64,000 bases of DNA, from NCBI RefSeq assembly GCF_037042905.1, contig NC_087250.1:12588001-12652000 (forward strand), given 5' to 3'. Under the pieces are notes generated by a model, which was not told the DNA's origin, made no database searches, and saw only the letters and a list, made by a program, of their open reading frames with translations. The position numbers and the translations under genes are program-made. Below, one piece after another: positions 4,943-57,654 of this stretch (position 1 is the stretch's first letter; every line of letters begins with the position of its first letter). The DNA is from Lytechinus pictus. Taxonomy: Eukaryota.

Positions 4943-5371
4943 CTACAGGTATTGGGGAAGAATGTAGAAAATCATAGATAAAAAATGTTTTCTGGGTGTG
5001 GGTGCTACTTAAGGCAGCACAAATTCATACATTGAATACTGCTGACACCTATAGTGATATGCAAAAATTGAAATTCTCCATCAATGAGAGCAATTATATT
5101 TTAAAACATGAATCAGATGAGTGTTCTAACACTCATTGACTTATTGCAAGGTAGGACAACAATTTCATACGGGAGAGCATTTATAATGAAAGCAAAATGA
5201 AGAACAAATGTAAATTGAGCAAATTGTCTGAAAATAATGAGTTTATACCAATGAATGAACAAATCCTGCTTGTAAACTGTTATCAAATTGGCATGCTTTT
5301 AAATAGTAATGTCTGCTTATATGTAAATGTGTAATTAGTGATATCATTGCACATTCATAACAATTGCTTAC

Positions 5372-8300
5372 CAAATATCTTAGAAGACCGTACTCTGACA
5401 AACTCCCCATCTCTCTTAGACATCGGACCTGCAACTGGAGGCTTGCTCTTCCTTGCAAATTCTCTGTTGACCCTCGACTGACCTACTTTGACCTTTGAAC
5501 CTGAGGCTGAAAGGTCACTGATAGAGCGGTCGCCTTCTAAGAGACTAGAGGTGAGTTTGTGTTGGGTCATCCATGCCATACTTGACTGGGGCCACTTCCT
5601 GTCATAGCTCTTGTCTGGGGAGGAATACATCTTTGAATGGGCACTGGTGGGGCGGGCGTTACCTTTCTTAGTGGCAGTTCTCTTTGGGTTGGCACTGCTT
5701 GGTCTTGGTTTGCTTGTCTTTTGGAAATCCTGTCTCTGCTCGCGAGAATCTACATCATCTTTCGAGACTGAGAAGCTCACTCTGTTCTGGTCAAACGTTT
5801 CACCAACAGTGTCCTGGCCCTCAGGAACCACAAAACTGGATGCTGCGGGAGGGTTGAAGTTAGATATTCTGTCGAGGACTTCATTCTCGTCTTCCAAGGG
5901 TGCTTCATACCTTGGTGAATGCATGAAGGGGGCCCCGACTTCAATGTCTATAAGACTATCGTGGCTGTCTTCAAGCTGGGCAAGTACATCAGCGTCTGGT
6001 CTATCCGTTTGCATGCTGGACGATAAACTCAGTCTCAGTGATGGCTGGTTTTCACTGGTTGAGGAAGACTCTGATGCTAGATTCCTCACTGGGGACACTA
6101 TAGCTCTTGGTGAGGAAAGCTTTCTCATTCTCCTGTCCTTTTCATGGTACTGTCTGATTTCATCCCTGTGGGCATCTGGTGTCCTAGGACTCTTCCTGGG
6201 TCTTGATCTCTGTGGAGAGTTCCGCCTAAGCTTTGGAGAACCCCTATTTGGTGTTGTTAGCCTAGTATTACTTGGCTTAGACGATGGAGGCGGCTTAGGT
6301 TGTTTCCTGGCTGATGTCAGGTCCACTTCAAAAGCAACACCTTGCTTTGCATTTCCTGGCACTTGTTTAGGTTGGGACATCGCATTTATTGCAGCATTAG
6401 CTTTAGTTCCAGTAACATAACTTTCAGTGTCTTGAGGATCAAAGACAAAGGACACACCAAATTTGGACTGTTGAATGTGAGAATGGAACGGAGTGTTGAC
6501 ATTGGGATCTGCCAGGTTGTTTTCACTAACATCTTCAGATAGATCGTAGGTTCTCCTCAATGCTTCAGTTTCAGCTCTCGATTGTCTTGAAATTGTTGTT
6601 GCATCCAGTACTTCTTCAATCATATCTGTGGAGTCTAGGTCACTTGTTGTCAAGACACCAGCCTTGCTGTAGTCCCTCACTTCCTTGAGGGGCGAAATAG
6701 CTCGACTATCAGGCCGAAAAGTTTCAAGCCCCAGGTCAGAATCGAGTGTTCTGTTCGCCACCTGAATAGTGGCATCATCAGTAGAAGAATCAGCATCATG
6801 GCTCAAAAGAACACTGGATCCCTTACTATAACATCTCATAGGATCTGTCAGAGGGGATTCTTTGGAGTCAAACAATCCAAGCTTTTCTAAGAGATCAGCA
6901 GTAACTGCTGGTTCTCTAACCTTACCAACTACACTGGAATTTTCCTCCTCGAGGACATCTCTAACAGAAAATTCTTCACAAGCATATTCTGATTCCTTTT
7001 CTCCTTGGTGCAAACCATCTTCTCGGCCAGAAGGAAGTACTCCAGAGCTGTATGTTGCTTCCTTGCTTTCAAAAGGTACAGGATCGAACTGATTCACTGA
7101 TTTATCCGAATAAGGAACAATATCATTCTCCTCTAATGCTTTCGCTGAACCATTCTGTAAATCGAGCTCATATTCTTCGGCACTGAGTTCTGCTTCCGTC
7201 TTCTTTATAGCATCATGTACACTGTATGATAGTAATGAACTCTGATTTAATGGCGGGACAGTTTCGTTTTCACACACAGAAGCAATTATTGATTTCTCTT
7301 CAAATTTTCTTTCTGGCATCTTCGGCGCAAACAGCGAATCAATCTTTCCAGAACTTCTGGAAGACCGATCCTCAACGGCAAATTCGGTAGGGTGAGTTTC
7401 CTTGTCTTTCTTTGATTTGACCTTCTCTGTCAACCCTCTGATGTACTGCCTCAGTATATCATCCCCTTGTTTGGCAGCATTACACAAAGCCCCCACATCA
7501 AAGCTCAGATCATCCATTTCTACCCCGCTTTCTTCTCCTTCATCCTTGCTTCTTCCTGCAGATTCGTCATGATCAACCCTCTCGTCCGTTGTGGTTGGAA
7601 AGGATTGTTCAGTGACGCTCTCCTGTGTCTCTGGTTGGGTTGGTCTCTGTAGAAGAACCTCATCTGATGCTGACGGTACAGGAGATAACATGTCCTCTTT
7701 TCTCTCATGGTTGGATGCCCCTTCTTTCAGCCGAGCCATGTCTGCATCCACCTCATTCCCATTAATGTCTGGTCGTCTCTGTTTCAAAGTGTCGTCCCTT
7801 GGTTGCAAACTCTTCCTTTTAGAAGAAAGTATTGATTTATAGTCTTCATTTTCAAGGAAGGATGACAGCAGTTCATCATGCAGCTTTGCCTTGACCTTGC
7901 GGATACTGAGCAAGGACTGGAGCATGTTCTCTGCAGAGTAGGCACTGTGAAACTCGGATGCCTGGAGGGCTTCACTTTCTACCTGTGAACCCAACTGCGA
8001 TTGGATGCGCCTTGATATACCCTCTTCCAGGTTGGCTTTACTCCTTAGCGCATAGCCATCCTCCAGCTCTGGTCTACCTTCTGATGATACTTGAAAATGA
8101 TGGCCTTTTCCTTGATCACTGAAGAAACTATATGATTGTGTCCCTCGGGCATCCTTCCCACTTTCAGTAGATGACGGGGACATATCATTGACAGAAGGCT
8201 TGCGATTTTCACGCAATCGGAAGAAATCTTGCAGTTCCCTATCACTGCGCGTACTCTTATCCTCTGAAGTATCTTCCACAACATAACGTGAGCTTTCGTT

Positions 8301-8921
8301 GGCTCTCTTTCTGAAGTCCTCAAATTCCGACTGTCTCCTAGAATTTGCATTACTACTTCGATACACACTGGCTGTCAATGGTCTTTGTGCAGTTTGTTCA
8401 CGATCCTGAGCCTTCTGTGGCTGTTTGGGTCTGGCTCCAGCCTTGGCACTGGAAGGCCTCAGATTATTCTTAGTAAGCCTGCTACTATCTCCTATATCTA
8501 ATCTGTAATGATCACCACGGGCTGAGGGAATAGCACTAGATGGCCTATTCTTCTTTCTTTTGAGAGGTGTCACATTCATGTAGTCATCGCCAGAAGGGCC
8601 TTGAGGATATTGGTGACCATGTCGAGGATTACCAGATCTAGCAGATGATGGACGGCTACTCTTGACGCTCGGCGACTTGTCGCCTCTTGTCCTGTCATGG
8701 AAAACTTGCTGTTGATGTATGCTTTTGCCTTTTCTGGTAGTTCCACTCCCCATTTTAGTCCTGTCTTGCAAAGAATCTGTTGACGGACTCTTGGACTGAT
8801 GAAACCCATGGTACAAGACATCTTCCTGATGTTCGGGTTGATGTGAAGCCAAGCTCTGCTCAAAGTAGGCAAGTCTCTTTTCCCTCACTTCCCTCCTCAG
8901 CTTTGTCCTAGATGTCTCCAT
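5372..8921 (-). CDS. F-box protein, giant coding exon 1 (~1183 aa, Ser/Arg/acidic, likely disordered)
   Basis: 1188-codon ORF; acceptor ttctaaAG (exon starts 8948); in-frame stop just before GCCATGG start; donor TTTG|GTaagc at 5372 (phase 1). Confidence 0.9.
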
Positions 8922-9041
8922 GGCTTATCCGTTACTTCCATCCAGTACCTTTAGAATAACAAGCAAACAAACAAAAAACGTGAAAATGAATTGTTAGAAT
9001 AAACTGCCTCTCAAATACTTGATATGTCAACATGTATGTAA

Positions 9042-28849: not shown

Positions 28850-29870
28850 TAATACAGGCCATCGCTGGGGCAGGTATATATCTTATTAGCAAATGTTGGA
28901 TAGCAATTATCATTGTACATGCATTTCAAGATAACATACCCACAGAAATAACTGGCCACATATACAGCAGAGAGGTATATTATCTTGATTACTGTGGGGT
29001 ATTTGGGGAACAGGGTAATATCCCATAATAGCACATGATGGATAGCAAATATTATTGTACATGTACCTGATAATAACATACACATAATAATAAATGGCTA
29101 CCCATAAATCACAGAGGTGATCCTTTTCATTGACAGAGGACAGTGTTTGGGTACAGAAATATTCCATGAGTACATGTTGGATAGCAAATATTATTGTACA
29201 TGTACCTGATAAAATAGCATGCACATAGTAATAACCGGCTACCCATAAATCACAGAGGTGATCCTTTTCAATGACAGAGGCCAGTGCATGGGTGCAGAAA
29301 TATCCCATGAGCACATGTTGGATAGCAAACATTATTGTACATGTACCTGATATTATAGCATACACATAGTAATAAATGGCTACCCATGAATCACAGAGGT
29401 GATCCCTTTCATTGACAGAGGACAGTGTTTGGGTACAGAAATATCCCATGAGCACATGTTGGATAGCAAATATTATTGTACATGTACCTGATATTATAGC
29501 ATACACATAGTAATAAATGGCTACCCATAAATCACAGTAATCACCTCTGTTTAAATAGAGGCCATTGTTTAGAAAAGGCAATATTCCAATAGCACACATT
29601 GGATAGCAACTATTATTGTACATGTATTTCATAAAAAATACACAATAGTCATATCTGGATACCTATACAATGTGTGTGTGTGTATTTGAGTTTTGTCAGA
29701 CGTGTATCAATCAGATATGATTATTTACTTCTGGGACCGACCTTTAACGTCACCATCCGAAAGACGTATACCTATACAATGCTAAGGAAATGACCTTTTT
29801 ATTAAGGCCCGTGTCGGGACAGGGCAACACCCCCATAAGAACGTGTTGGATAGCAAATATTATAACATGA
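28850..29870. repeat. ~141-bp tandem repeat (about 7 units) immediately 3' of the MINDY stop codon
   Basis: GTTGGATAGCAAATATTATTGTACATG-like core recurs at ~28895, 29038, 29177, 29318, 29459, 29600, 29845. Confidence 0.9.
29673..29767 (-). mobile_element. 5'-truncated copy of the 7SL-headed SINE
   Basis: Reverse complement of 56161-56250 with 2 mismatches plus (CA)n tail; TSD ATACCTATACAAT(G) at 29659-29671 and 29768-29780. Confidence 0.9.
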
Positions 29871-35654: not shown

Positions 35655-35891
35655 ATGACATTAATAATTTTAACGTTTTATTTACCAAGGGTGCCAATTC
35701 AATTAGAAAACTGGTCTTCCAGTGGGCCCTTCCTAACAAAATATGTTACTATTACCCTTCTCCAATCCAAATGCTGAGTGCCTAAAGGGAAGGCAGAAGG
35801 TCCCATATTTATGAGTCTCTAGTATAACTCGGGCGGGTATTGAACCCATGACCTCCTGTTCATGAGATAGGCACTCTACCACTGAGCCACC
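35655..35891 (-). mobile_element. tRNA-derived SINE, degraded
   Basis: Minus strand GGTGGCTCAGTGGTAGAG (A box)...GGTTCAATACC (B box); 3' end resembles the tail of the SINE at 60473. Confidence 0.6.
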
Positions 35892-36392
35892 TTACAGATG
35901 TATTTCATCCCCATTTACAAAAGACTAATAATGGAAAAGGAGAACCCTTGGAAAAGCCTGGCATGGCTATGCAAAATATAAGTTCTCACAAAAATATATA
36001 ATTCATATTGATATTTTAGAAGATAGAGTATACATCAAAACGTTAAAGGGATTGACAAAAAAATGAACAAAGCCATATTAAAGAAACAATGTACAAGATA
36101 AAAAGAAAACGGGTGGAGGAAATATCATTGATACTTTGAATACAAAGTTTAAATTTATCAACAGGTCATAGAGTTTTATCCCTCTTAGATAACAGAATGC
36201 TGTTTCATAATCTATAAATCTTGTGTACACGTATATAAAGTTGCAAGAAGTAAATTCATTGTAGTCTTTACCCAATAGGGTACCCAGTAGGATTTGAAAG
36301 TCGATGTGATTAGATTGGCATGTGTGAACTGATTGACGGTTGCCTAACCAGGATGGCAATCCCAAGGCAGTGAAGATGGTGGACTGTATGCA

Positions 36393-54420: not shown

Positions 54421-55626
54421 AACCGAATGTAAGAAATCAATGAACAAATCATGGAAATGTTGAAAATCTACAGTTCTTGAAGGATAGTTTTTTTTCTTCT
54501 CTCTTCTAAGTTCTAACTCGAACTGTATGGCAGTGAGTCCAAACTTCGCGTGTGTCCATACTTCGCGGACGGTCATTATCTAAAAAACTAGACAATATTC
54601 TTAAAATATGACATCAATCATCAACGTGAAAAGCGACTTAAAATTACCTTTTGGCGTAATTTTTTTTAGGATGAGTTCAGTATTCATGAAAATATTGACA
54701 AAAGATCGGCAAATTTGTCACCGTTATCGCCCGTTCAGAAGAAATCTGATATTCTCAACAAGCATCACGATATCATCAGTTTGCAAGCAGATATCATCAA
54801 AAATGTGAGTTAAATGTGGTACTGACTGATTCTATAGCATTTTGTCGTCAATTTGATATAAATATCTCATCTTTTGAGCTTGAGTTTTTGTTTAAATCTC
54901 CTCAAAAACTTTGGTCCGCTAAGTTAGGTCACACTTTTTCAGAACGGTTTTCCAGCACAGTGCGCATTCGTCGATGGGATTGGAATTTTGAGATCGCGAT
55001 ACCGACGAAACCCCTTGACCTACTTCACATTTTCGTCAATGATTTTATAATTTACGATCTTGCCGTCAATGTGGTAACTATTTTTTAAATTCATTTTGTA
55101 TAAATTGTTAATATATTGTAAACAAAATTAAGCCTGAAGAATATTTTTGAAAAGTCCGCGAAGTTTGGACACCCCATCATTACAGGGACTCAATGACAAT
55201 GGCCATATGTTTTTGTATTAAGTTCGGATCCACTCTAGTTACCAGGAAAGTGGGACTCTGGAGTTGCGCGACAGCTGAAGTTAGTCACTGTTTTCCCCCT
55301 TTTAACTGTTTTTCCTGTTTTGGTTCGTATCAGGCCAAAACGGAATAATAATCTTTATTTTGGTCCAGTTCTTTAGATATATTTATATGAAATATAGACA
55401 AAAATCGATGAGCCGCGTCGGGGGGAATTTGCATTGTTAACCCCTAAAATGGTGGATGCTCGATCGCGAACCGACTGTGTACGAGAAACTTTTTAAAAAT
55501 TGTTTAAACTCCTCGAAACAGACGGCTGCCATGGCTGCCAGCTGTATACTACAGTGTATTATAATATATGATCAGATATACAGCTGAAAAAAGCGAGAAA
55601 ACACTGTAATCAAATGGTCTCCCACT

Positions 55627-57190
55627 CAGTGGCGTAGCTAGGATTTTTTTTCCTGGGGGGGCACTGGGGGGTCCTTGCTTTTTCTGGGGGGGGGCACCAT
55701 TTTTCCGTTGTGTGTGTATGTGTCACAAGGGCGGATCCGATTTCGCCAATAGGGGACGGGGCCCGAAATTATCTTCACCTATATTTCCCCCGATCAGTCA
55801 CTTCTTAGATTTATTCTTAGAGAACAACATAAACATAAAATAATCTCATAAGCCTTATAAAAAGTGCGAGCGCGAAGCGCGAGCGATTTTTTTATTTTTA
55901 CTTTCATGTATTTTGTCCTGAAAATGTAATATTCTGTGCAATGTTATGTGTGATCCTGAACAAGATTCGTATGTAACTAGATGGTTACTGCGAAGGCCAA
56001 GCGCGAGCAGAAATTTTTATTAACTGTTCTAGCATTATCGAAAAGGGACCTGTTAAGGACTGCTTACAGTTACCCACGAAGACTGGGCGTTGTGGCGTGC
56101 GCCTGTAATCCAAGCTATGTGGGGAAGTTACAAATTGATGCAGAGGTTCGAGCCCTGGTCACGTCTTTCGGAGGGTGACGTTAAAGGTCGGTCCCAGACG
56201 TAAATAATCATATCTGATTGATACACGTCTGACAAAACTCAAATACACACACCCACGAAGACGGTATATATTTCAATAATGCGAGCGGGATGCGCGAGCA
56301 AATTTTTTTTTGACATTCCGACCTAAAAAATTGTCATTCTAAGCACTTTTTGTATTAATAAATGGGATAGGTATGTAACTAAACAATTGATGCGAGCGCG
56401 AAGCGCGAGAGGAAGAAAATTGAGATTTTAGACCTAAAAGCGGGACACTCTATTCATATTTTGTAAATCATAAATGTGATATAGTTAATTGGGTATCATT
56501 AATAATGCGATCGTGAAGCGTGAGCAGACAATTATTGATATTCTGATGTGAAACTGGATAATTTAAGTACATTTAATATAAAGAACATGCAGGCTATCGC
56601 GCATGTTTTAGATTTAGACCTAGAATCTGGGCAGTCTGAATACATTTGTTTAATGGAACATTATGAAATACACGTAGACAATAGGAACTTGGCAAATCAA
56701 ACAATTTGACCACGCAGCGTGAGCTTAAAAATGCTGATATGTAGACTATAAAAGGGACGTTTTACAGCTAGAACGCTTAAATTTGTTAATGAAAAAGAAT
56801 TGATGAGAGCTCGATGTCCGAGCTAAAATATATTTTGTATTTTGACTTCAAAACTTGCTCCATATCACTTATCAGCCTATTGAGCAAGATATGAATTTCA
56901 TCGAACAGGCAATTCTGGCGCGAAGCGCAAGCAAAAGTTTTATATAGTAACATGAAAGATTTTTTTTTTTTGCAGGTCTTCCCTTCACATTATTTCATTC
57001 ACTCGTCTTCCTCCTCTTATTTTCCTCTTCTTTTTTTTTCTTCTGTCTTTCTTCTTCTTTTCCTTTTTTTTCTTCTTTCTCCTTTTTTTTTTGCTCTGCC
57101 AATTTTTTTCAGGGGGGGCACTTGGGGGGGGCACACCAAATCTCAGGGGGGGCACGTGCCCCCCCAGGCCCCCCCGTAGCTACGCCACTG
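55627..57190. mobile_element. Non-autonomous hAT-like element
   Basis: TIRs CAGTGGCGTAGCTA...TAGCTACGCCACTG; perfect 8-bp TSD CTCCCACT (55619-55626/57191-57198); GCGAGCGCGAAGCGCGAG subrepeats. Confidence 0.9.
56081..56250 (+). mobile_element. SINE with 7SL RNA (Alu-domain)-like head, B box and (CA)n tail
   Basis: GACTGGGCGTTGTGGCGTGCGCCTGTAATCCAAGCTA head; GGTTCGAGCCC B box; TSD ACCCACGAA(GAC) at 56072 and 56251; second copy at 29673-29767. Confidence 0.85.
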
Positions 57191-57654
57191 CTCCCACTCT
57201 CCCTTTTTCACGATTTTACCTCTTTTTTTTCAAAACAGGGACGCCGAATCGTTTTTTATTTTACCTCAATCAACCTCAGTCAGATCGGGCTCAGCGCGCA
57301 GCGCCGCAAGACTGTCGAAAATATAACCAAAAACAAGTAACATGATCAAAGAAAAACACTGCATATAAATTATCTATCATGCATCACACAATAAGTTTAG
57401 TAGGAACATGTAGCTAAAATATTAGATTTTCAAGATTCGGGTAGCTTCTAATGATACACAGTTGTAAAAAGCGAGAAAACACCGCAAAATATGGTCTCTC
57501 TTTTTCACTAACTTCACTTTTTCAACAGGGACGCCGAGCCGTTATACACGCACAAGCCATTGAGACGACCGAAATTGGGCGAAAATCAGTCCGACGACAG
57601 GGCATAAAAATGCTGTTTTCAAATGTATTAGATAAGAAAAATACCAGGACTCAC

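Follow-up and report, generated by a model that had tools for sequence, protein, structure and literature searches.

The window analysed here, a stretch of 64,000 nucleotides of the sea urchin Lytechinus pictus, contains a copy of a short interspersed element (SINE) at positions 56082-56250, which lies within a non-autonomous hAT-type DNA transposon (55627..57190, no strand given). The transposon has terminal inverted repeats (TIRs) of 14 nt at 55627-55640 and 57177-57190, and a perfect 8-bp target-site duplication (TSD), CTCCCACT, is located outside these TIRs (55619-55626 and 57191-57198), confirming the nesting described in the initial annotation. The SINE is read on the forward strand, and an exact 12-bp direct repeat, ACCCACGAAGAC, is found twice, at 56072..56083 and 56251..56262, in agreement with the insertion, TSD and (CA)n tail reported earlier at this position; the last 2 nt on the left side may just as well belong to the SINE itself, as its first bases. 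From 5' to 3', the element consists of a head with helices 2, 3 and 4 and the U-turn of the host 7SL RNA (56082..56128, found with cmscan and RF00017), a linker between head and B box to which we assign no source (56129..56144, delimited by alignment of copies), a tRNA-type B box GGTTCGAGCCC (56145..56155), a Deu/Nin-like body with a 5-bp GUCAC/GUGAC hairpin (56158..56197, from by-eye comparison and folding), a 3' stem-loop which is a candidate recognition element for a LINE reverse transcriptase (56196..56230, from folding), and a 3' tail GACAAAACTCAAAT(AC)n (56231..56250), with this copy ending in ...CTCAAAT(AC)3. The RNA-coding unit is approximately 165 nt followed by a variable (CA)n run; its B box is perfect, an A-box-like motif is also present, and there is no T4 run inside the unit. 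A second, 5'-truncated copy is present on the reverse strand of the window (29678..29767), comprising the last 90 nt at 98% identity (blastn) and flanked by a 13-bp TSD, ATTGTATAGGTAT.

The head is not restricted to a single copy, and the initial annotation had named such a restriction as evidence against its reading: a SINE-specific 21-mer spanning the head junction has 852 exact copies in the genome, and a 16-mer from the body has 1105, distributed over many contigs. These marker counts and the median length of 178 bp (tail included) are in the range that SINEBase uses for SINEs, and all of the 40 full-length matches scored (from 1710 candidates) were 99-100% identical. In a position-ordered sample of 54 copies, 47 contained the 7SL head and seven were 5'-truncated or decayed, with none carrying another head. 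Only 63 of the 1105 body sites passed a filter excluding the head at its three usual spacings, and by our reading about 40 of these still bear an indel-shifted head. The TSDs vary in length from 0 to 14 bp, and are at least 6 nt long in 29 of 89 full-length copies versus 1.4% of shuffled flank pairs; 5' truncations are common and have many different truncation points, and the flanking sequences of most of the 89 full-length copies are unrelated. With TSDs, 5' truncations and a simple-repeat tail, all the marks of retroposition are present, and together with the abundance and uniform head-body junction these bear out the SINE family proposed from the window sequence. On the sequence evidence the family is young and has recently been active. 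Locus L043 was considered as a sign of an older subfamily, but represents a lone old copy, as its closest relatives are members of the ordinary family at 80-82% identity.

Some copies have multiplied passively inside other repeats, and the copy counts therefore overstate retroposition. Five loci (L039-L042 and L044) have long identical flanks around one or two SINE copies, and the tandem pairs in L039, L041, L042 and L044, which could be taken for a dimeric SINE, all have these flanks in common, as does the single-copy locus L040, and thus represent one carrier repeat rather than a dimeric family. A 7SL gene cluster that has been duplicated contains four copies. Upstream of three 7SL genes, at a distance of 38 bp, there are copies whose position raised the possibility that this was the birthplace of the family, but these are ordinary insertions into the 7SL promoter, which is split by the SINE into a distal half upstream and a proximal half downstream, and the SINE variant beside the 7SL genes was found at 0 of the 100 head junctions listed.

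The derivation of the head from 7SL RNA, as claimed in the initial annotation, was supported by several comparisons. Using permissive thresholds, cmscan aligned 56082-56128 with positions 1-44 of the Metazoa_SRP model (RF00017) at 29.6 bits (E-value 6.5e-6), the alignment covering helices 2, 3 and 4 and the UGUAAU stretch. The Rfam gathering score of this model is 70, and the head is missing from a scan at the gathering threshold because 44 of the 299 model positions score far below that value. The alternative that the head would fit a tRNA better than the host 7SL found no support, since cmscan gave no match of the window SINE to the tRNA model at E≤10, and no tRNA was predicted within the window by ARAGORN. 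RF00017 positions 1-44 were also matched in five of seven further SINE copies, the exceptions being a copy with a decayed head and a 5'-truncated control, and none of the seven matched the tRNA model at E≤1. The Metazoa_SRP search for host genes suggested in the initial annotation gave seven full-length 7SL genes (272-283 bits), six of which have a 28-nt exact run in common with the head, while the variant gene L037 on C12 shares an exact run of 31 nt; for the GCTG-type head, 42 of 48 aligned columns are identical to L037. The first 60 nt of the SINE are identical to the major 7SL type in 44 of 61 columns (72%) and to the variant 7SL in 47 of 63 columns (75%), with almost all identities falling within the first 47 nt; both values are above the SINEBase threshold of at least 60% identity to tRNA, 5S rRNA or 7SL over at least 60 nt (PMC3531059). 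With blastn, only positions 1-37/42 of 7SL were aligned to the SINE, and in shuffle tests the remainder of the SINE had no significant similarity to 7SL positions 48-300. We conclude that the head derives from the 7SL RNA of its own host; a 7SL-derived head is the feature that defines the SINE1 class of Repbase.

Helix 2 pairing is maintained in all SINE subfamilies seen, and its ACU/AGU variant is common to the SINE head and, among the 7SL genes, L037 only. The compensatory change from ACC/GGU to ACU/AGU is, by this comparison, inherited from the variant 7SL gene, and did not evolve within the SINE. Since the head shares host-specific bases and the helix 2 variant of one 7SL paralogue, an origin separate from that of the families in mammals and hagfish looks like the simplest reading, as was also proposed in the initial annotation. 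One loop base of mammalian SRP RNA forms a tertiary pair; this base is a C in the host 7SL, and is either a U or absent in the SINE subfamilies. Folding was uninformative for the 5' part, with z-scores of -0.38 for the whole element, 0.26 for the head and 0.24 for the 5' end of the host 7SL, and minimum-free-energy folding did not single out the Alu-type fold in either the head or the host 7SL itself. A 15-nt identity between the end of the head and the consensus sequences of bivalve V-SINE3 was taken as chance, because in two older SINE copies this segment is more similar to 7SL.

The SINE subfamilies are defined by indels in the linker region, one of 8 nt in the linker and a 7-nt duplication of the B box just after it, with the B box being single in 25 and duplicated in 23 of the 48 full-length copies sampled. 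The B box with its flanks resembles the T-arm and acceptor strand of a tRNA. The description of a B box followed by a body unrelated to 7SL stands, with the similarity of the body to 7SL not significant by shuffling, and by eye this body resembles the beginning of the Deu/Nin core in alignments from published supplements, where about 31 of 43 columns are alike with BivaMD-SINE1 and about 20 of 30 with the start of Lottia_Nin. This likeness is confined to the first 40 nt or so of the core, the central domain of the Deu/Nin superfamily comprising about 120 nt for the Nin part and up to 330 nt in vertebrates. Searching the genome with a pattern built from the Deu core of bivalves gave 0 matches.

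At the 3' end, the stem-loop at 56196-56230 has a predicted stability of -9.6 kcal/mol (z-score -2.95, with 1 of 200 shuffled sequences as stable), and is followed by an (AC)n run ranging from 4 to 30 nt between copies. The comparison of the tail with LINE 3' ends, recommended in the initial annotation, was done by genome scans with tail anchors in which the SINE body was excluded, and did not find a LINE sharing this tail: there was none in the 65 matches to a 17-nt exact anchor, in the 95 matches to a 20-nt exact anchor, or among the 100 listed of 239 matches to a 24-nt anchor with up to three mismatches. The matches listed were indel variants, 5'-truncated SINE copies or copies with five A's for four, and they had no recurring LINE-like sequence upstream of the tail. 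Three tail matches with a common upstream sequence are insertions into a satellite-like repeat of approximately 115 bp, and not a LINE.

Three other readings of the structure and spread of this element were weighed. The region from the linker through the B box into the first part of the body could descend from approximately positions 49-101 of 7SL, with the B box having evolved from 7SL as in Alu instead of from a tRNA-derived SINE. In a copy with a duplicated B box, the segment that follows the head does align collinearly with the adjoining 7SL positions 49-101, and, according to the scoring scheme used, between 15 and 29 of 500 dinucleotide-shuffled sequences scored as high, but in the same test the z-scores were 0.2-0.9 in the young subfamily and approximately -0.7 in copies next to 7SL genes, and a separate shuffle test gave 1.7 and -0.1. 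As by-eye comparison also places the body closer to the beginning of the Deu/Nin core as published, and the B box and flanks look like a tRNA T-arm and acceptor strand, we consider such an extended 7SL origin unlikely; in two copies with a duplicated B box the cmscan alignment spanned the whole model, with a gain of less than 1 bit and many non-standard pairs. The tRNA-type B box and the resemblance of the head to Alu might suggest a diverged tRNA head, human Alu contamination or new 7SL/retroposon chimeras at each insertion, to which we attach virtually no weight given that the tRNA model has no matches, that the head contains host-specific 7SL bases and the helix 2 of the variant gene, and that the junction is identical in 852 copies and common to the subfamilies. 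It is also very improbable that the copies spread mainly as passengers or by segmental duplication instead of by their own retroposition: while the window copy lies inside a hAT element, five loci have identical long flanks and four copies are in the 7SL cluster, most of the 89 flanks are unrelated, 29 copies have their own TSD of at least 6 nt, and truncation points and tail lengths vary from copy to copy. We think it highly probable that the element is one copy of a recently active, non-autonomous SINE family with a 7SL-derived head, a B box and a Deu/Nin-like core, whose spread would be driven by a LINE.

For such a SINE, RNA polymerase III would transcribe source copies by means of a promoter inside the element, formed by the B box and the A-box-like motif inside the 7SL head (about 56085-56095, at the usual spacing from the B box). 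The partner LINE would be one recognising its own 3' end, probably CR1/L2-like, which would read the stem-loop and repeat tail and reverse-transcribe the SINE RNA at a nicked target. The family itself may have arisen when a Deu/Nin-type SINE had the 5' half of its tRNA head replaced with a 7SL 5' fragment, a swap of the same kind as proposed for the 5S-headed DeuSINEs and hagfish SINE1-1_EBu; this tRNA-headed parent is hypothetical, because the search for a sister family combining this core with a tRNA head found none, the 63 head-filtered body 16-mer sites showing no second kind of head. By analogy with the proposal for Alu, the head may in addition bind SRP9/14 and bring the SINE RNA to ribosomes translating the LINE, which we put at about an even chance. 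An SRP14 exon was found in the host genome, and a six-frame family search for SRP9, a small intron-containing gene, found none in this genome or in control genomes. The head could instead matter only as promoter and 5' end, by providing an A-box-like element and perhaps stability, with SRP9/14 and ribosomes not involved. Most SINEs, such as those derived from tRNA, work without an SRP-like head, LINEs recognising their own 3' end can pick templates by stem-loop and tail alone, and the SINE has a stable stem-loop, a perfect B box with an A-box-like motif in the head at normal spacing, and one tertiary-contact loop base unlike that of the host 7SL. A purely promoter-related role is a real possibility, but we are inclined to doubt it, as the retained piece is the whole 5' Alu domain (model positions 1-44) rather than just the A-box region, the helix 2 pairing is preserved in all subfamilies seen, and a piece of approximately 46 nt is the SRP9/14-binding and retrotransposition-promoting unit in Alu (PMC12199147).

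The element shares with the Alu, B1 and Tu families of Euarchontoglires and the Urop SINE of the shrew mole a 7SL-derived head with the 5' Alu domain, as well as the RNA polymerase III-type structure, abundance and recent activity. These families are described as keeping both the 5' and 3' ends of 7SL after a central deletion of approximately 183 nt, and as having A-rich tails and using L1 (PMC13023118), whereas the sea urchin SINE contains about 47 nt of the 7SL 5' end only, without a detectable 3' 7SL part or complete Alu domain, and is further marked by a separate B box of tRNA type, a Deu/Nin-like core, short variable TSDs and a (CA)n tail after a stem-loop, in an invertebrate host. It resembles hagfish SINE1-1_EBu (Eptatretus burgeri) in being a young, non-mammalian, 7SL-headed SINE with a simple-repeat tail; SINE1-1_EBu is reported to be an independent 7SL-headed chimera with an older tRNA-derived SINE, with approximately 99% identity among its top copies, a few thousand copies and a non-L1 partner (Kojima 2020, PMC7245038). 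In the hagfish head, 96 nt from the 5' part and 44 nt from the 3' part of 7SL form a full Alu domain, and it is combined with a bipartite RTE sequence tail, (AAC)n and TSDs of approximately 17 bp (PMC7245038), while the sea urchin SINE has the 5' domain alone, TSDs of 0-14 bp and a (CA)n tail.

In the 5S-headed DeuSINEs (AmnSINE1 and SINE3), an RNA polymerase III RNA was put before a partial tRNA, probably by template switching (PMC4824008). The sea urchin SINE likewise appears to have a Deu-like core after the remnant of a tRNA head, with 7SL rather than 5S as the added head, and with approximately 40 nt of recognisable core versus 120-330 nt in the group of AmnSINE1, SINE3 and SINE2-3_SP. 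The latter is a tRNA-headed DeuSINE of S. purpuratus listed with a CR1 partner (PMC3747384). With a B box and a T-arm-like remnant in place of a tRNA-like 5' region with A and B boxes, the element differs from SINE2 families, and with approximately 47 nt of 7SL and a tail that is not poly(A) it also differs from 7SL retropseudogenes such as P7SL_MD and P7SL_Cpo, which consist of full-length 7SL and poly(A). The head also corresponds to the laboratory construct SA46 / AY46, which contains the same part of 7SL at the same length. This minimal 46-nt 5' Alu domain was necessary and sufficient for association with SRP9/14 in HeLa cells and supported retrotransposition at about 73-86% of the full Alu level (Moldovan, Yin and Moran 2025, PMC12199147), using an external promoter as its own RNA polymerase III promoter is incomplete according to its authors (PMC12199147), whereas the sea urchin SINE is a natural family in which this domain is joined to a foreign B box and to a tail that is not of the L1 kind.

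SINEs derived from 7SL are described as extremely rare and limited to supraprimates, hagfish and one mole lineage (2026, PMC13023118), and our full-text literature searches gave no sea urchin or other invertebrate 7SL SINE. We tentatively suggest, at somewhat less than even confidence, that this is the first 7SL-derived SINE from an invertebrate, with a further independent origin next to those in supraprimates, hagfish and shrew mole, the only one in which just the 46-47-nt 5' Alu domain was kept, and with docking to ribosomes if the head binds SRP9/14. The family may already be present in Repbase or Dfam, unnamed or misfiled, which would reduce the novelty and leave the biology unchanged. It extends the range of 7SL SINEs to the invertebrates, and provides a natural experiment, since the other 7SL-SINE lineages retained the whole Alu domain after nearly the same deletion, whereas the sea urchin kept the 5' domain only. 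If the head binds sea urchin SRP9/14, evolution would have arrived independently at the minimal Alu domain that experiments defined in 2025, the remnant of a tRNA SINE supplying the half of the RNA polymerase III promoter that this domain lacks, and docking to ribosomes via SRP9/14 would assist a SINE in hijacking a LINE other than L1, of the type recognising its own 3' end. This leads to the testable question of whether such docking is a general route for SINEs to the proteins of any LINE clade, for which the host is available as a laboratory animal whose eggs can be injected and whose genome is assembled to chromosome level. Given the youth of the family, its insertions may also be polymorphic and useful as markers.

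The insertion reads as the region 56072-56262, flanked by a 12-bp direct repeat (ACCCACGAAGAC; 56072-56083 and 56251-56262) which encloses approximately 167 nt with the 3' terminus ...CTCAAAT(AC)3. It lies within a 1564-bp hAT-type element (55627-57190), whose 14-nt terminal inverted repeats start with CAGTG and are bordered on the outside by a perfect 8-bp duplication (CTCCCACT), as is typical of non-autonomous hAT transposons and in agreement with the nesting claimed in the initial annotation. A second copy of this transposon (locus L114, near position 24102261 of contig C1) contains a SINE of the duplicated-B-box subfamily with the same 3' junction as the window copy. The target duplication differs in length (6 bp, ACCCAC, vs 12 bp). 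We read this as a separate insertion into a favoured site, suggesting that a CA-like target is reused via microhomology with the tail.

Using cmscan with permissive thresholds (551 nt searched), positions 56082-56128 aligned to positions 1-44 of the Metazoa_SRP model (29.6 bits, E 6.5e-6), spanning helix 2, helix 3, the UGUAAU stretch and helix 4. This score is far below the gathering score of the family, which is inevitable with 44 of 299 model positions, and the element is therefore absent from the gathering-threshold scan. The same model positions were matched by the heads of five of seven further copies (29.6-31.6 bits), the two misses being an old decayed head and a headless truncated copy. 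The only additional cmscan match on the head at E≤0.1 was mir-1268, an Alu-like hairpin family; the tRNA model gave no match on the element at E≤10, and ARAGORN found no tRNA in the window.

The host genome (G000; 812 Mb, 368 contigs) contains seven full-length 7SL genes, scoring 272-283 bits. In six of these the gene begins with ACC and helix 2 is closed by GGU, vs ACU and AGU in the seventh (L037, C12:4895279-4895577), a compensatory pair of changes between 7SL paralogues; this variant gene is identical to the major 7SL type in 288 of 301 columns, and its helix-4 loop is also altered. The ACU/AGU helix 2 is present in every SINE subfamily seen, the longest exact run shared with the head is 31 nt for L037 vs 28 nt for the other six genes, and for the GCTG-type head the identical aligned columns are 42/48 with L037 vs 40/53 with the major type, L037 being the 7SL type most like the SINE head. 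These sequence comparisons indicate that the head originates from 7SL of the host lineage and not from a mammalian or hagfish element, with the variant, L037-like type as its most likely source. The 7SL-derived head proposed initially is thus borne out by the cmscan score and the exact run with L037, and by its alignment to the host genes where tRNA models gave no match. Over its first 60 nt the element is identical to the major type in 44/61 columns and to the variant type in 47/63, which exceeds the formal SINEBase threshold for SINE assignment, here to 7SL, of 60% identity over 60 nt (PMC3531059), and by the Repbase definition, a 7SL-derived head, its sequence places it in SINE1.

Directly 3' of the head follow a 16-nt linker and a perfect B box (GGTTCGAGCCC, 56145-56155) whose flanks resemble the T-arm and acceptor strand of a tRNA, after which the sequence continues as GTCACG-TCTTTCGGA-GGTGACGTTAAAGG-TCGGTCCCAG. 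The comparisons of this body with published sequences are by-eye alignments. Approximately 31/43 columns, including an 11-nt exact run, match BivaMD-SINE1 (consensus sequences in file 2 of the MetaSINE paper supplement, PMC4824008), in a region which we take to be the start of the Deu/Nin part from its location 3' of the 66-bp Meta domain. Approximately 20/30 columns match the start of the Lottia Nin-DC domain, which begins with a TCGGATGG-GAC motif (Matetovici et al., PMC4758252, file 4) that is also present in the SINE body. This by-eye likeness extends over only ~40 nt at the start of a domain at least 120 nt long, and to that extent the initial description of a B box followed by a non-Alu body resembling the Deu/Nin start stands. 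A 35-nt stem-loop at 56196-56230 (-9.6 kcal/mol, z -2.95, 1/200 shuffles as stable) is directly followed by GACAAAACTCAAAT and the AC run. Separately, a 15-nt stretch at the 3' boundary of the head (56116-56130, CTATGTGGGGAAGTT) recurs in bivalve V-SINE3 consensus sequences (paper supplement), an identity that is probably due to chance.

The part after the head might also descend from 7SL (positions 49-101), a minor alternative for which the best case is a duplicated-B-box copy aligning to these positions in the same order, with a score reached by 15-29 of 500 shuffles, but the alignment was not reproduced by other subfamilies. Local alignment of the post-head part to 7SL 48-300 or 48-140 gave z -0.8 to 3.3 relative to dinucleotide shuffles, varying with subfamily and scoring, and blastn of the element against the 7SL genes matched only 7SL positions 1-37/42. 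On these alignments the rest of the element is not demonstrably 7SL.

The element belongs to a young SINE family. Of 1710 first-look candidates from a genome search with the 167-nt element, 40 full-length matches were scored, each 99-100% identical, with one further match at 93%. In exhaustive pattern counts, a body 16-mer had 1105 exact occurrences and a 21-mer across the head junction peculiar to the SINE, where one A is inserted relative to the 7SL genes, had 852; the element, initially annotated from one copy, is thus not single-copy. In a positional sample (the first 54 body sites in order along contig C1, one being kept of four tandem duplicates), a 7SL head was present in 47 copies and seven were 5'-truncated or decayed, with no head of any other kind among the 54. 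Median identity of the 48 full-length sampled copies to two reference copies was 96.3% (range 81-98.8%), and the B box was single in 25 and carried a 7-nt duplication in 23. A search with the divergent copy L043 found no abundant older subfamily, its best relatives being the ordinary family at 80-82%.

This family has spread by retroposition. Direct repeats of 6-14 nt were found at the junctions of 29/89 full-length copies with enough flank (0-5 nt in the remainder), vs 1.4% when the 5' and 3' flanks were paired at random by shuffling. Copies most often begin with (A)AC and continue with UGGGCG; this start, with C at -1 in 81, A at -2 in 62 and A at -3 in 50 of the 89 copies, mirrors that of the 7SL genes. 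The AC run ranges from 4 to 30 nt among copies, many matches in the filtered scans have differing 5' truncation points, and the window holds a second, 5'-truncated copy with a 13-bp duplication (29678-29767, minus strand). Besides retroposition, some copies multiplied passively: four loci with two tandem SINEs, the second abutting the first at its (CA)n tail (L039, L041, L042, L044), and one with a single SINE (L040) have identical long flanks at all five, a pattern indicating amplification of a carrier repeat in which one or two SINEs are nested. Several SINEs, both full and truncated, lie in a satellite-like tandem repeat of ~110-120 bp (GGGTCTGGAG.AAAGACTAC.CTATATTTCCATGTTATTCAACAT...; L017, the whole 3.2-kb locus; also C6, C8 and C10), which may be an insertion hotspot. 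The body 16-mer also recurs in five copies of a ~2.4-kb tandem repeat (C15:24317236-24326849), where the surrounding sequence is otherwise unrelated.

Beyond the architecture, head origin, abundance, youth and retroposition marks documented here, a mechanism can be proposed from what is known of SINEs. Pol III transcription would be directed by an A-box-like motif in the head and the B box ~50 nt downstream, an internal T4 terminator being absent; the stem-loop and repeat tail would then be recognised by the reverse transcriptase of a LINE whose template choice depends on its own 3' end, with priming at the nicked target. The clade of the LINE partner is a guess by analogy, the S. purpuratus tRNA-headed DeuSINE being listed with a CR1 partner and a Nematostella Nin-DC SINE with L2 (PMC3747384); genome scans with tail anchors (20-nt exact, 24-nt with ≤3 mismatches, 17-nt) gave no LINE sharing the SINE tail among the matches listed. 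The family may have originated when, in a Deu/Nin SINE, a 7SL 5' fragment took the place of that half of the tRNA head which carries the A box, with parallels in the 5S and partial-tRNA heads of vertebrate DeuSINEs (PMC4824008) and in the proposed 7SL and tRNA-SINE chimera of hagfish (PMC7245038). No tRNA-headed sister family with the same core was found using the body 16-mer scan excluding the head or a bivalve Deu-core pattern.

We give about even odds to the head binding SRP9/14 and carrying the SINE RNA to ribosomes. The piece kept in the sea urchin SINE is the same 46-47 nt as the minimal Alu 5' domain which Moldovan et al. describe as necessary and sufficient for SRP9/14 association, as supporting ~73-86% of Alu retrotransposition, and as being without a full Pol III promoter (PMC12199147); in the sea urchin SINE the foreign B box would complete that promoter. 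SRP14 is present in the genome, and SRP9 was not detected in a crude six-frame search which also gave no match in control genomes. Against such a role, ribosome docking may be dispensable for LINEs that recognise their own 3' end, and one head loop base differs from host 7SL.

According to a 2026 paper, supraprimates and hagfish were the only groups with reported 7SL-derived SINEs before the shrew-mole family (PMC13023118), and all those described share an Alu-type pattern, with both 7SL ends kept and a central deletion of ~183 nt (PMC13023118; PMC7245038). The sea urchin element, with the 5' domain only, does not fit this pattern, and no 7SL SINE of a sea urchin, echinoderm or invertebrate was found in full-text searches of the literature. 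It is an invertebrate 7SL-headed SINE of independent origin that retains the 5' domain alone and combines it with a Deu/Nin-like core and a tail of non-L1 type, and the overall reading of the initial annotation, a chimeric SINE with a 7SL head and an origin of its own, holds.

A duplicated 7SL gene cluster on contig C10 contains four divergent SINE copies with 79-87% identity to that of the window (L031 877-1045 and 1290-1458; L035 1294-1462; L036 1315-1462), a further case of passive multiplication. In these copies 8 nt of the linker are missing, and their insertion points, 38 bp upstream of three 7SL genes in tandem, divide the conserved 7SL upstream sequence into two halves, one distal (CCCTCAATA.GACAATAAA) and one proximal (TCCTTAATTTCGC). 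All 7SL genes but L037 (L031-L036) have a tRNA T-arm-like B box (e.g. CCTGGTTCGAGTCCAGG) followed by GGTGTC, 10-45 nt past the TTTTT terminator, which could be a half-tRNA remnant or a downstream TFIIIC site, as known from yeast U6 genes. Elsewhere in the window, the sole Rfam match above gathering score (tRNA, 33.2 bits, 35825-35896, minus strand; no ARAGORN call) is probably the head of an unrelated tRNA-derived SINE. The genome is that of a sea urchin, Lytechinus pictus or something very near it, judging from an open frame of 1189 codons (5355-8924, minus strand): over the 501 residues compared it is 100% identical to a protein named from L. pictus, with 88% identity to L. variegatus and 57% to Strongylocentrotus purpuratus. 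The frame codes for part of a serine-rich protein of F-box/LRR type (PF00646, PF13516 and other Pfam domains on its database match).
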